Counted from the first letter of the stretch, positions 19,834 through 24,795 are shown. The stretch is DNA of 64,000 nucleotides from a virus (IMGVR_UViG_3300026094_000002); one strand, 5' to 3'. The notes: generated by a model not told the origin, from the sequence alone. A program made the numbers and translations.

Positions 19834-21052
19834 AATGTATTACCTTTATATTATATTTTTCTTCAGTTGCTCGCCATGGGTCAACCACGACACTTCCGGG
19901 AGCAAATTCAAAGTATGCTTCGTCTTCTGCCTCTTCGCCAGTATAACCATAAGTTATTTTTCTGTTATGTGCTAATAATATTACAGCGGGTGAAGCAACA
20001 TCATCAACAACTTCAGTAGTGTCATCTGCCAATGGATCAACATAACAAACAGAACGGCCCAATTCTTTTACGTAATGTCCTACTAATGTTGAATAACTTC
20101 CTATACAATATGGGACATTTGGTTTATAAGATTTTCCATGAATTACAATAGGCAGATCATTATGTTCTTCACTCTGCTGCACCAAAAATTTAGCAAGATT
20201 TTCTGCTTGTCTTTCCCGGGCTGTCATAATTGTATCAAATAGATCATAGCCAAGTTCATATTCTTCTGCCAACCAGCGGAGTGCTATGTTGTCACGTGGA
20301 TGACAAGCCCCTGAATCGCCCATCCCTGCTGTCATATATTTTGGGCCCATTATACGCATTGTACTATTTGCCAATGCATCAGTAACAACATCAACATCGA
20401 TATTACCTATTTTCATAGCACAATCTTGTATCATATTCACAAGGCCAATTTTTGTTGAAATAAATGTATTATAGAAAATTTTAATTGCCTCACACTCATC
20501 CCAAGTGCCAGTGACGTATCTGGGATTGTTTTGCATAATTGGCTGATATATATCGATCAATTTTTGTACTTCAACATCATCTCCACTTTCTGTTCCAATC
20601 ATGATCATTTCAGGGTTAACCATGTCCCATTTGACACTCCCCATAGCGATAAGATATGGATTATAAAATAACCTATGCTTATCATTTAATAATTCAGCAA
20701 AATGTTTGCGTGTTGTGCCGGGCAAAACTGTTGAAATTAGCACAACTTTCTTAGAACTTTCTGCATGTGTATTGACAGAGGTCAGTGCTTCTTTCACTGC
20801 AGAATGATCAAAATCCCGTGGTTCCATATGAGAACTTGGAACACTTCCATCATAGCCCTTATCGTGTGGAGTTGGAACCGCAATAAAAATCCAGTCACTT
20901 TTATTAACTAACTCTTTTATTGATTCACAAATATTGACTGACTGACTTTGACGTGGGTAAATATCGTAACCATAAACCGTATACTGTTCAGCAAAAACTT
21001 CTGCACAGTCTAGGCCCAATTTGCCTAACCCGATAAAACCTATTGAATTCAA
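19814..21052 (-). CDS. ugd: UDP-glucose/GDP-mannose dehydrogenase family
   Basis: GFIGLGKLG Rossmann motif, IAVPTP, IKIFYNTF, GACHPRD (catalytic Cys); TTG start. Confidence 0.9.
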   Translation of the reverse strand: MNSIGFIGLGKLGLDCAEVFAEQYTVYGYDIYPRQSQSVNICESIKELVNKSDWIFIAVPTPHDKGYDGSVPSSHMEPRDFDHSAVKEALTSVNTHAESSKKVVLISTVLPGTTRKHFAELLNDKHRLFYNPYLIAMGSVKWDMVNPEMIMIGTESGDDVEVQKLIDIYQPIMQNNPRYVTGTWDECEAIKIFYNTFISTKIGLVNMIQDCAMKIGNIDVDVVTDALANSTMRIMGPKYMTAGMGDSGACHPRDNIALRWLAEEYELGYDLFDTIMTARERQAENLAKFLVQQSEEHNDLPIVIHGKSYKPNVPYCIGSYSTLVGHYVKELGRSVCYVDPLADDTTEVVDDVASPAVILLAHNRKITYGYTGEEAEDEAYFEFAPGSVVVDPWRATEEKYNIKVIHYGNTRK

Positions 21053-21053
21053 A

Positions 21054-22430
21054 ATGACTATACCTCTTGATAACTTATATGATTATATATTCAGTTTGAC
21101 TGGGCACACAAATAAAAACCTAATCATGTACAGATTTGATCCACATGGCTCTAAAAATATAAAAAACTTGACTACGCAAAATCATATTCAGAATATTATG
21201 CTTAACTTAAAATCATCATCAAGAAGCGTCAGGAGTTGGCACCATAAAATACTAATATGTAATGACCAAGAACCATTATATTATACTTTATATGATGGAA
21301 AAACCGAAGAAAAGAAAGAATTATATCAAAATGCTGATTATATACGACATGAAAATTCTTTAGAACAAAAAATAGCAGAAAAGAAAAAAAATATAGATGG
21401 TTCTCCGGAAATAGTTTTTTCCGTGTATGACAAGAAAATTTTATTACATTCTGAAAAAGAAAGTAAAGATTTAGAAAAGTACGAAAAAAATGGATTTGTG
21501 GGTGCGTATTACTGGTCACATGCTTTTATCTCCTTAGATTGGTATCGGTTTGCTGAACATGATGAATATCTTAATTATTCCTCTTTTTCTAATTTCAGTA
21601 AGCATTTTAATATCTATTGCCGAGGATGGTCAGGAGTGAGAGAATATAGACTTAAATTTTTAAGCACAATGATTAAAAATAATATAGACAAATACGCAAA
21701 TATATTTTTCAGTGAGTATAATGACCAGTCACACTTTAGTAATAGTCTATCAAAAACAAAAGAATGGAATATTTCAATAAAAGAAAAAGAATTAATTGAT
21801 AAATCAGAATATATTACAAAAAATAATTCTGACCCTTCATTAAGTGCATCATATTCTGTAGATGACTATAAAAATTCTGCAATTGATGTAGTACTAGAAA
21901 CAGTCTTTGACCAAAATAAAATTTTTCTAACAGAAAAAATCTTGAGACCAATTGCTTGCGGGAAACCTTTTATTTTGGTTTCTGAAAAAAACGCATTACA
22001 ATATTTAAAATCATATGGATTCAAATCATTTGATGGTTTAATTGATGAAAGTTATGACACTATCACAGACCCATCAAAAAGAATGGAAAAAATAATTGAA
22101 ACAATGAAAAAAATATCTAATTTGACACAAAACGAAAAAAATGAATTGTTTTGTAAAATGCATCTGATTGCCGAAGAAAATAAAAAATGGTTTTTTTCGA
22201 ATGATTTTTTTAATTTAATAAAAACCGAATTAAAAACAAATTTGCAACACTCATTAAGTGTGTTAGATAACCCAAAGAACCAGACTGCGAAAGAATTATG
22301 GCTTGTATATCGGTCAAACAGGCTATATAAAAAATATTTGAAAAAAAATGCAAAACATAGGTCTGATCAAATTGTATCTGAATATCCAGAAAGAATAGAA
22401 TTAAGCAAGAAAAATATAGGAATATCTTAA
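21054..22430 (+). CDS. GT10 (fucosyltransferase)-like glycosyltransferase
   Basis: IDVVLETV...FLTEKILRPIACGKPF...GFKSFDGLIDESYD; AT-rich; likely start MTIPL. Confidence 0.55.
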   Translation: MTIPLDNLYDYIFSLTGHTNKNLIMYRFDPHGSKNIKNLTTQNHIQNIMLNLKSSSRSVRSWHHKILICNDQEPLYYTLYDGKTEEKKELYQNADYIRHENSLEQKIAEKKKNIDGSPEIVFSVYDKKILLHSEKESKDLEKYEKNGFVGAYYWSHAFISLDWYRFAEHDEYLNYSSFSNFSKHFNIYCRGWSGVREYRLKFLSTMIKNNIDKYANIFFSEYNDQSHFSNSLSKTKEWNISIKEKELIDKSEYITKNNSDPSLSASYSVDDYKNSAIDVVLETVFDQNKIFLTEKILRPIACGKPFILVSEKNALQYLKSYGFKSFDGLIDESYDTITDPSKRMEKIIETMKKISNLTQNEKNELFCKMHLIAEENKKWFFSNDFFNLIKTELKTNLQHSLSVLDNPKNQTAKELWLVYRSNRLYKKYLKKNAKHRSDQIVSEYPERIELSKKNIGIS

Positions 22431-22786
22431 TACTTTCGTAAAATTCCATCCCATTCAGATACAATATTGCCTTTTTTATAGTCTCGGATTCGTGATTCTA
22501 ATACATCATAAAATGAATCCATTTCTCCTTTAAACTTTCCTCTAAGAGACTCTATTGCTTGCTCACAAAAATCCCAATTCTTTTTGCGATAATTGTTCAT
22601 TAATGCTTTATGCATATCAGCAGTTTGTTTAAGAACAGAAACCTCTTCTAAGGTAACATTTTCCCCACCAATGACACAATAAGCAGTTATCGGCTCTGCA
22701 TCTTCAGCATACTTTATGGTATCCAATTCTAATACCACATACTTCTCAACTATTTCTTGTGGTGGTTCACCAAATATTATTTGCAT
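22427..22786 (-). CDS. Stand-alone homolog of the adenylate cyclase C-terminal tail
   Basis: Aligns to the C-terminal region of 3441..5495 (LELDxI, YRxKNxD, LxGxFxGxMDxxYD, SxWDG). Confidence 0.8.
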   Translation of the reverse strand: MQIIFGEPPQEIVEKYVVLELDTIKYAEDAEPITAYCVIGGENVTLEEVSVLKQTADMHKALMNNYRKKNWDFCEQAIESLRGKFKGEMDSFYDVLESRIRDYKKGNIVSEWDGILRKY

Positions 22787-22816
22787 AAGTTTTTCCTTTT
22801 ATTGTAAATATGTATT

Positions 22817-23605
22817 ATGTACTTGTCATTTGATTTAATTTCAGATTTACATCTTGAAACTCGAGATGGCTTTAACTGGGATGGACAGCCAACCAGCCAA
22901 TGTTGTGTGGTGGCTGGAGATATTTCTAAAAATATTCAGGATACGGTTTCTTGTCTTACCCATTTGTCCCAATGCTACAAAAAAGTCGTTTATATTGATG
23001 GTAATGCAGAGCATCGTTGGAATTATTCTGATCTTGGTTCAAGTTATCAAACCTTAGTTGAAGAATTGCAAAAAATACCAAATGTTATTTTCCTGCAAGA
23101 TAACATGGTCATAATCAATGGTGTTGCGATAGTCGGTACCAATGGCTGGTGGACATACGACTTCAATCCCAACATGGATTTTGAAAACTCAGTAAAATAC
23201 GCTGTTGATAGATATGACATTAATGTTGGTGATGCAATGACACTACGTGCTATGGCAATTAATGATGCGAATTATCTTGCAAACACTGTCAACCGGTGTC
23301 AGACAATGCCAGATATTAAGAAAATTGTTGTTGTTACACATACTGTTCCTCACGAAATGATTACAAAACACGATGAAGAATTTGACGATGATCTTCAGTA
23401 TAATCTGTTGGGCAATTCATATATTAAACAAATTTTAGAACAAGACACGGAAAGAAAAGTTGATACGTGGTGCTTTGGACATTACCACAAAGATGTTGAT
23501 TCTGTTATTAATAATATCCGATATGTTAATAACTGCTTGGGTGAAAAGGGATCAACTTGGGCCAAGTCTGTTTATCACCCAAAGCGTATTGAAGTAATAA
23601 TTTAA
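22817..23605 (+). CDS. Calcineurin-like metallophosphoesterase
   Basis: SDLH, AGD, GNAE (GNH variant), THTVP, FGHYH. Confidence 0.85.
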   Translation: MYLSFDLISDLHLETRDGFNWDGQPTSQCCVVAGDISKNIQDTVSCLTHLSQCYKKVVYIDGNAEHRWNYSDLGSSYQTLVEELQKIPNVIFLQDNMVIINGVAIVGTNGWWTYDFNPNMDFENSVKYAVDRYDINVGDAMTLRAMAINDANYLANTVNRCQTMPDIKKIVVVTHTVPHEMITKHDEEFDDDLQYNLLGNSYIKQILEQDTERKVDTWCFGHYHKDVDSVINNIRYVNNCLGEKGSTWAKSVYHPKRIEVII

Positions 23606-23916
23606 TCTGCTTCGGGCTCAATTTTAATATTTAAAGGATACCCGTTGCTACGTGCACTTACTGTAATCTCAATGCCCTTTTGTTCTGCAATCTCATATGG
23701 AAGAACTGCCACACACGCAGATCCCGCTTCATGAACTTCTTCAGTAATCTTTTGAGCAGTAGCCTCAGTATAATTAAGATGATTCATCAAACTTTCAACA
23801 ACAAAATCATATGCAGTACTATTGTCATTAATATAAATTAGTTGGTACATTGGTGGCTCACGCAACTCTGTATTAATTTCTACTTTTGTCTCGCTTGATG
23901 CGGATGATGTTGTCAT
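23602..23916 (-). CDS. clpS: Clp protease adaptor ClpS (divergent pocket)
   Basis: PPMYQLIYIND...FVV...EVHEAG...EIAEQK...YPL. Confidence 0.88.
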   Translation of the reverse strand: MTTSSASSETKVEINTELREPPMYQLIYINDNSTAYDFVVESLMNHLNYTEATAQKITEEVHEAGSACVAVLPYEIAEQKGIEITVSARSNGYPLNIKIEPEAD

Positions 23917-23940
23917 TTGTTTCCTCGTAAATTAAATTAG

Positions 23941-23967
23941 TAGAGCAGGGTCTAAGACCCTGCTCTA
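23941..23967. terminator. Perfect 12-bp hairpin between hsp20 and clpS
   Basis: TAGAGCAGGGTC-TAA-GACCCTGCTCTA. Confidence 0.65.
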
Positions 23968-23985
23968 TAGTTTGCAAGAGACTGA

Positions 23986-24423
23986 TTATCCCTTTTGGGT
24001 AATTGCAATAGACTTAGGCTTCATTGTCTCAGGGACAATACGCTCTAAACTAATAGTAAGAATTCCATTCTCAATAACCGCATTATTTACCTCTACATAT
24101 TCGGCAAGCGTAAATGAACGCGTGAAGTCTCTTGATGAAATACCATGGTAAAGATATTCAATATCTTCGTTTTTGTTTTCCTGTCTACCTGTAACAGTTA
24201 GGTGTCCTTCATGGTATTCAATATCTATCTCTTCTTTATTGAAACCAGCAACTGCCACCTGAATTTCATAACGATCTTCATCAACACGAACGATGTTATA
24301 TGGTGGATAATTGCCATTGGAACCAGCGGTATCAACTTGATCCATTACGCGATCAAAAATTCGATCCATTCCAATTGTATTTCTGTAAAACGGTGATAGG
24401 TCTAATGAAGTAATTTTAGTCAT
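23986..24423 (-). CDS. hsp20: Small heat shock protein (Hsp20/IbpA-like)
   Basis: NYPPYNI, VAVAGF, YLYHGISSRDFTRSFTLAE, NGILTI. Confidence 0.95.
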   Translation of the reverse strand: MTKITSLDLSPFYRNTIGMDRIFDRVMDQVDTAGSNGNYPPYNIVRVDEDRYEIQVAVAGFNKEEIDIEYHEGHLTVTGRQENKNEDIEYLYHGISSRDFTRSFTLAEYVEVNNAVIENGILTISLERIVPETMKPKSIAITQKG

Positions 24424-24429
24424 TGTTGT

Positions 24430-24490
24430 CCTCCTTTATTAAGCAAGTGACTAATAGTGCAACCCAAGTTGGCGTTGCACATGTATTTAT
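24430..24490 (-). promoter_or_regulatory. Late promoter plus structured 5' leader (copy 2)
   Basis: ATAAATA-CAT-GTGCAAC-G-CCA-ACT-TGG-GTTGCAC...CTTGCTTA...AAAGGAGG. Confidence 0.65.
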
Positions 24491-24511
24491 TATACACTAA
24501 TTACGGTTCAT

Positions 24512-24751
24512 TTAAAAGGGCTGATTCTTTTTTTCATCGTTTAATTTTTTAAGCCAACGCTTTCTCGCAGCGGCTTTTTTAGCCTTTCTTTCTTGGCAGG
24601 GCTTTTCATAGAATTCATGTTTCCGAACATCTTTTAGCACACCAGATTCATCAACTTTTTTCTTAAACTTTTTAAGTGCACGTTCAAATTGTCCGTCACG
24701 AACCTCTACGCGATTTCCTTTAATCTTTATTTCGTCAGTTTTCTTTCTCAA
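24512..24751 (-). CDS. rpsU: Ribosomal protein bS21
   Basis: [12 protein letters not shown]...[15 protein letters not shown]...[11 protein letters not shown]. Confidence 0.92.
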
Positions 24752-24795
24752 TTGTCAATACCTTTGAGTTCCTTTAATTACATTTATGTGTTGTT

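Follow-up and report, generated by a model that had tools for sequence, protein, structure and literature searches.

A stand-alone viral protein family homologous to the C-terminal tail of CHASE2-type class III cyclases in a T4-like phage

The 64,000-nucleotide stretch of viral DNA analyzed here (IMGVR_UViG_3300026094_000002; hereafter the window) carries a 119-residue protein gene whose product is homologous, from its second residue to its last, to the C terminus of the CHASE2-type class III cyclase encoded in the same genome. An original prediction from the sequence had described this protein as a stand-alone paralog of the cyclase C-terminal tail, lying 17 kb from the cyclase gene, and both the relationship and the distance (~17 kb) held up. 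We use SA as the label for this stand-alone cyclase-tail module gene at 22427 to 22786 (Table 1). The reading that we favor, to which we give close to an even chance, is that SA is an exapted noncatalytic tail module that keeps the putative binding function of the tail in trans, as a competitor or an adaptor.

Table 1. Features of the window discussed in the text
Feature	Position	Strand	Size or content	Basis or remark
SA	22427-22786	minus	119 aa, ATG start, TAA stop	ORF and translation
Shine-Dalgarno-like AAAAGGAAAA	22791-22800	minus	few bases 5' of SA ATG at 22786	direct sequence reading
SA/metallophosphoesterase head-to-head spacer	22787-22816		30 bp	conserved motif ATACATATTTA...AAGGA
Calcineurin-like metallophosphoesterase	22817-23605	plus	262 aa	phrog_1649 E 2e-27; TIGR03729 E 1e-16, below cut-off
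Glycosyltransferase-like gene	21021-22430	plus		tail-to-tail with SA
CHASE2 + class III cyclase	3441-5495	minus	684 aa	CHASE2 E 2e-42; Guanylate_cyc residues 418-603, E 3e-22
SA-homologous part of cyclase gene	3444-3797	minus	residues 567-684	hhalign
Curli/T8SS-FecR module	5520-8836	minus	upstream of cyclase	Pfam
CsgF	8345-8836	minus		Pfam
CsgG	7512-8348	minus		Pfam
Curlin-like gene	6866-7606	minus		Pfam
FecR-domain gene	5791-6933	minus		Pfam
108-aa ORF	within 5520-8836	minus		part of curli/T8SS-FecR module

Pairwise BLASTP aligned SA with the window cyclase at 29% identity over 101 residues (E 3e-11). With a profile of 64 diverse SA-family members and a profile of 31 cyclase C-terminal halves as inputs, hhalign matched SA residues 2 to 119 to cyclase residues 567 to 683 over 117 columns (probability 99.2%, E 9.7e-20). 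The two alignment blocks on which the paralogy had been proposed proved exact on recounting, with 8 identities in the 22-residue block (SA from residue 18, cyclase from residue 584) and 19 in the ungapped 56-residue block (SA 59 to 114 versus cyclase 622 to 677). Because the hhalign match begins at SA residue 2, the homology starts earlier than these blocks and extends over the full length of the protein. The start of SA corresponds to strand beta6 of the cyclase domain, and the segment common to the two proteins comprises beta6, alpha5, beta7, and beta8, followed by a helical tail of ~75 residues.

SA lacks the catalytic core, as had been predicted, and keeps only the last third of the cyclase domain (beta6 to beta8). 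The Pfam cyclase domain (PF00211), which covers the whole ~180 residues from beta1 to beta8, had no match in SA at E values up to 1, and the two metal-binding Asp residues, the substrate-specifying residues, and the transition-state Asn and Arg are absent. The motifs of the window cyclase are intact (TDLRGFT at residue 428, KYIGDA at 471, VNVAARLE at 551, and VKGK at 592), and its catalytic residues, at about 428 to 560 (TDLRGFT, KYIGDA, and VNVAARLE), lie upstream of the segment that SA covers. The recounted alignment also agrees that the phosphate-binding beta7-beta8 loop is replaced, with VKGK (cyclase residues 592 to 595) aligning with YAED in SA; positions 25 to 31 of the SA family, which match this loop, are its most variable stretch. 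Judged from these residues, SA cannot be a cyclase.

The AlphaFold2 model of SA (pLDDT 88, pTM 0.82) has predicted strands at residues 2 to 5, 17 to 25, 33 to 39, and 115 to 117 and predicted helices at residues 10 to 15, 46 to 67, 71 to 81, 84 to 87, and 90 to 104, and the secondary-structure order is the same in the model of cyclase residues 395 to 684 (pLDDT 88.9). In a Foldseek search of the AlphaFold DB, the SA model superposed on the C termini of many predicted cyclases (TM 0.6 to 0.77, probability 1.00), whose sensor architectures include CHASE2, GAF, response-regulator, and eukaryotic types. We define the cyclase C-terminal tail module, which is unnamed, from 31 phage cyclases and these AlphaFold DB matches. 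In the models, SA has the fold of this module, i.e., a three-strand scaffold, three or four helices as a cap, and a closing strand, and it fits the residue pattern of the module but is not fused 3' of a cyclase catalytic core. The SA model had no Foldseek match in the PDB at E values up to 0.001, the SA sequence profile gave only chance rows against the PDB (E > 1), and nothing clear emerged among the Swiss-Prot models (Dictyostelium ACR, probability 0.77).

Across ~170 SA-family members, His59 is invariant, and Tyr66, Trp71, Leu81, Gly83, Phe/Trp85, Asp90, Phe92, Tyr93, Arg99, and Trp112 are nearly so. SA residues H59, Y66, W71, F85, Y93, R99, W112, and G114 correspond to cyclase residues H622, Y629, F634, F648, Y656, R662, W675, and G677, and the cyclase counterparts of the SA invariants are also invariant across the 31 cyclase tails. 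Because these invariants are shared with the cyclase tails and the loop matching VKGK is variable, conservation indicates that the scaffold and tail of SA are constrained as they are in the enzyme and that the lone catalytic element of the segment has been released. The three strands were presumably kept since the tail cannot fold without them, and a purely structural role is conceivable for the conserved polar residues. Strands beta6 and beta8 are hydrophobic on both faces throughout the SA family, which could reflect oligomerization or, instead, docking on something cyclase-like.

SA is a real gene, and it is under purifying selection. An AAGGA or AGGAG element lies at the same spot as the Shine-Dalgarno-like element of SA in 14 related loci, and comparison with a 77%-identical homologue gave a pN of 0.137 versus a saturated pS of 0.76. 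SA is alone on its own strand and forms a separate transcription unit. A scan for sigma-70-like promoters gave nothing above shuffled expectation. No RNA run is listed for SA, and one RNA-library contig maps in the region, spanning only 23473 to 23700, outside SA. An internal start in the cyclase gene at the SA-equivalent position was considered and rejected, as the codon there is GTA, not a start codon.

The family to which SA belongs is large. Its 26 close homologues (45 to 90% identity) are all 119 to 121 aa long, and a profile search of 1.8 billion representatives recovered 614 SA-family clusters at E < 1e-3, of which the best 150 are all 64 to 144 aa long, mostly 100 to 130 aa. Among 86 SA look-alike clusters in Atlas, ~90% are viral. 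No Pfam, PHROG, or NCBIfam model matches SA, three SA-family members searched by tblastn had no match in 50,697 GenBank phage records, and a scan of bacterial genomes with two peptide patterns found no stand-alone form. A weak match in phage HTVC008M (E 0.005, three stops) falls inside a baseplate wedge gene and was taken as chance. Our literature search found no described function of the cyclase tail, and both the stand-alone family and the tail as a distinct conserved module appear to be previously undescribed in the literature and libraries searched. A shorter SA of ~103 aa, without the terminal Trp-Asp-Gly strand, occurs in three related loci (L023 to L025, 9050 to 10315), where it follows, on the same strand, ClpS, a 176-aa ORF, and a 140- to 147-aa ORF, with no phosphoesterase.

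A maximum-likelihood tree built from 43 stand-alone proteins together with the tails of 27 phage cyclases and of 8 cyclases on MAG contigs placed the stand-alone proteins in one clade (support, 100/99), on a long stem beside a group of cyclase tails; the stand-alone proteins evolve faster than the cyclase tails. The SA-family profile scored phage-type cyclase tails at 50 to 63 bits and an alphaproteobacterial cyclase at 31 bits, and more distant tailed bacterial cyclases (Chitinophagales and a cyanobacterium) fell below its threshold. Together, the single clade and this gradient of scores point to one event, in which a CHASE2 cyclase gene was partially duplicated or truncated, with later divergence; the tree, with few columns and no outgroup, leaves the direction and donor unproven. 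As a fragment of a larger gene whose catalytic part is missing, SA might be taken for a functionless, decaying remnant of a partial gene duplication. We regard this as extremely improbable: SA is intact in every locus examined, it has its own Shine-Dalgarno element and start codon, its nonsynonymous divergence is low against saturated synonymous change, and hundreds of diverged yet intact homologues carry the invariant residues, so that the conservation data already contradict such decay.

The surroundings of SA are constant. SA adjoins the metallophosphoesterase gene in 16 of 24 viral loci and on two more contigs, within a block ordered ClpX, (S21), Hsp20, ClpS, the metallophosphoesterase on the opposite strand, and then SA. 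The window itself encodes a full Clp set (ClpP beside CsgF; ClpX and ClpS), Hsp20, and ribosomal protein S21 at 8900 to 9484 and 23602 to 26001, and the order ClpX-S21-Hsp20-ClpS is kept in nearly all related loci. The spacer motif is kept where the proteins share only 40 to 50% identity with those of the window, and its complement includes TAAATA just 5' of the phosphoesterase ATG. Conserved spacers are present in the window and in loci L004, L005, L007, L010, L013, L016, L020, and L173. TAAATA, the T4-type late-promoter core, lies ~8 nt before the phosphoesterase ATG, where an obvious Shine-Dalgarno element is absent; such a placement would imply a nearly leaderless late transcript for the phosphoesterase.

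These arrangements raise an alternative that we consider unlikely, namely, that SA is a regulatory or targeting subunit of the divergent metallophosphoesterase, the two forming a unit that acts on phosphoesters, possibly cyclic nucleotides. The head-to-head pairing, 24 to 62 bp apart across the conserved spacer in those 16 loci and two contigs, favors such a unit, as does the finding that an orthologue of the enzyme (45 to 53% identity) is adjacent to SA in all six SA-bearing large records and occurs in 0 of 10 SA-lacking ones, which have distant paralogues or none. However, this co-occurrence may follow phage lineage, relatives of the enzyme occur in many phages of the GenBank set that have no SA match, and the sub-lineage represented by L023 to L025 has SA without a phosphoesterase neighbor. 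The enzyme matched only generic families (phrog_1649, and TIGR03729 below its cut-off) without an evident CpdA-type signature; CpdA-type class III cAMP phosphodiesterases are recognized by family-level similarity and by five metallophosphoesterase motifs, GNH(D/E) among them, and the third motif of the enzyme is GNAEH. A sequence search for a PDB relative found none. The association may reflect functional pairing or shared ancestry only.

Alternatively, given the same synteny with ClpS, Hsp20, and ClpX, the fold may have been co-opted for a task that has nothing to do with cyclic nucleotides, such as one in the protein-quality-control block (ClpX, ClpS, Hsp20, and ClpP). The long stem branch and the faster evolution of SA relative to cyclase tails are compatible with such a change, as are Cys37 and Cys74, which are conserved in the SA family and both absent from the cyclase tails. 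Yet all tail invariants are kept, which speaks for conservation of the old function and against a new one, and SA is similar to no family of Clp adaptors or substrates. We hold such reuse to be quite unlikely.

Lake and other aquatic metagenomes contain DNA nearly identical to that of the window. Summed contig depth in two lake-water or aquatic DNA runs rises ~20-fold exactly at the 3' end of SA (from ~5 to 24 up to 47 to 550 across window positions 22375 to 22450), and several different sequences join at 22375 to 22380, with loose ends there. SA therefore lies where a widely shared core block meets a strain-variable island. The contents of the island differ by phage, being sugar-modification genes in the window and the curli-cyclase module elsewhere, and the border position of SA therefore offers a positional account of its occasional adjacency to the cyclase module.

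The window cyclase is 57% identical to that of Methylophilales phage Melnitz and stands at the end of a cluster of CsgF, CsgG, curlin-like, FecR, and cyclase genes. The same cluster is present in Melnitz and in Pelagibacter phage HTVC008M, and on this basis the window is from a T4-like phage of the Kyanoviridae type. A T8SS-FecR-AC module has been described for pelagiphages, so that the cyclase and its curli context are already published (PMC9599517).

Several further observations concern this module and the records that carry it. The HTVC008M cyclase (L002, record positions 11972 to 13807) is 611 aa long, aligns only to window cyclase residues 29 to 602, and is without the entire tail, which is present in Melnitz and in all 80 viral cyclase loci examined. 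In L004, two ORFs separate SA from CsgF (10350 to 10981), one of 130 aa that resembles a lipoprotein (signal peptide with Cys) and one of 80 aa. They overlap or abut their neighbors and may be additional components of the curli module. Phage-type CHASE2 cyclases with 45 to 59% identity were also found on short MAG contigs (L116 to L127) labeled Rhodobacteraceae, Chitinophagaceae, Legionellales, Pirellulales, and others; such contigs are probably phage sequence that was assigned to bacterial MAGs during binning. The IMG/VR records behind L004, L058, and L098 are 343 to 383 kb long, and the window cyclase was seen on a 305-kb contig. Such Melnitz/HTVC008M-type contigs of 300 to 383 kb are rated 97 to 100% complete and are more than twice the size of their cultured relatives (141 to 147 kb); genuinely large genomes, concatemers, and misassemblies are all conceivable explanations.

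The distribution of SA bears on the proposal that SA is a dedicated decoy or off-switch, which would lower cyclic-nucleotide synthesis by binding either the phage's own CHASE2 cyclase or the protein that its tail engages. Besides the window, at least 10 other viral contigs carry both SA and the cyclase. Seven of 24 viral loci have CsgF, CsgG, curlin, FecR, and cyclase genes following SA on its strand, and in three loci (L009, L014, and L024) SA lies less than ~100 bp upstream of CsgF, heading the cluster. Such an arrangement would be in line with a tighter link to the cyclase than our reading supposes. Against this, SA was found within 10 kb at only 6 of 80 cyclase loci and was absent from the other 74, although all 80 cyclases are tailed, and no SA-family member lies within 6 kb at any of 80 CsgG loci. 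A short "HK" has been reported before phage CsgF (PMC9599517), and because of this last count SA is probably not that gene.

Whole records give a similar picture. A broad profile, sensitive enough to pick up every cyclase tail, found a stand-alone SA in only 2 of the 20 records searched whole. A tailed cyclase occurs without SA in a 383-kb record rated 100% complete, in three records rated 70 to 71% complete, and in cultured Melnitz; HTVC008M has a tail-less cyclase and no SA; and a 300-kb record rated 81% complete has SA but neither a cyclase nor CsgG. Viral contigs are fragments, which makes any single absence weak, but the pattern is consistent over the near-complete records. A complex prediction for cyclase residues 395 to 684 with SA scored 0.01, below the mark; it points neither way and does not enter the argument. 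By its distribution, SA is not obligately coupled to the phage cyclase. The noncatalytic, stand-alone paralogue of the original prediction stands, whereas a dedicated partner is not supported as proposed, as most cyclase-bearing phages lack SA, and the SA-bearing record without a cyclase comes close to what that prediction had itself named as counting against it, namely, homologues that are common in phages lacking CHASE2 cyclases. Considering also that SA sits at the island border, where adjacency to the module may be positional, we find a dedicated off-switch rather doubtful.

The reading that we favor, an exapted tail module acting in trans, can be outlined as follows. SA would be the minimal part of a CHASE2-type class III cyclase able to fold by itself, built of a beta6-beta8 scaffold, a TPR-like three-helix tail, and a closing strand. 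The data indicate that it arose once from a cyclase C terminus and has diversified as a virus-restricted family under purifying selection, with the tail invariants all retained while the catalytic phosphate loop decayed. Because the tail and scaffold are conserved and the catalytic loop has decayed, the role of the tail in the cyclase would be separable from catalysis. The tail would bind a protein or a small ligand, most likely via the conserved His, Tyr, Asp, Arg, and Trp positions, and SA would do the same in trans while producing no cyclic nucleotide, competing for, or serving as an adaptor to, whatever the tails of phage or host cyclases engage. It would not be an obligate subunit of the phage's own cyclase.

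We further speculate, with low confidence, that the tail is a previously unrecognized domain with a regulatory or binding role, present in class III cyclases of bacteria, phages, and some eukaryotes, and that phages have freed it to interfere, perhaps together with the paired metallophosphoesterase, with cyclase signaling. The freed tail might act on the cAMP signaling of the phage itself, on host cyclases, or on cyclase-type defense systems. If this is true, the freed tail would represent a new kind of trans-acting cyclase-tail mimic.

Overall, SA represents one subdomain of a class III cyclase that now exists as a free protein, and it defines a large viral family of small proteins (hundreds of clusters) that is unnamed in Pfam, PHROGs, and NCBIfam and has no solved structure. 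Its conservation predicts a separable, noncatalytic function for the ~75-residue unannotated tail of many class III cyclases. SA is also a candidate regulatory piece for the curli-FecR-cyclase modules of abundant marine and freshwater phages (SAR11- and OM43-type hosts). The distribution of SA does not match the simple picture in which a phage cyclase has an off-switch of its own.

Among known systems, TPR-like hairpins (SRP72, BamD, and APC subunits) offer a resemblance only. SA helices 50 to 108 superposed on such rows at Z 5 to 6.2 in a wide VIA-align search, within the range of unrelated helical matches; CheA P1, an HPt domain of the four-helix-bundle type with an exposed phospho-accepting His, which was considered in view of the reported "HK," also fell among unrelated helical rows at Z 5.0, with no sequence match. 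SA has no sequence similarity to TPR proteins, Pfam TPR (a 34-residue helix-turn-helix repeat) had no match in it, and its beta scaffold is foreign to TPR. Solved class III cyclases, including Pseudomonas aeruginosa CyaB (3R5G), S. platensis CyaC (1WC0), Cya2 (2W01), OaPAC, and Rv1625c, share with SA the beta6-alpha5-beta7-beta8 segment that serves as its scaffold and match the window cyclase model at E 1e-16 to 1e-13. They cover only ~200 of its 290 residues (395 to 684), and from these aligned lengths they appear to stop before the ~75-residue tail. Unlike CHASE2-type cyclases as whole enzymes, SA has no CHASE2 sensor, membrane segments, or catalytic core, and its phosphate loop is degenerate. 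The likeness lies with the tails of these cyclases, as found in the pelagiphage T8SS-FecR-AC module (PMC9599517), in Melnitz gp104, and in alphaproteobacterial, Chitinophagales, and cyanobacterial MAG cyclases. SA differs from these tails in being a separate gene that evolves faster and forms its own clade, but it shares with them 117 homologous columns, the order of secondary-structure elements, and the invariant residues.
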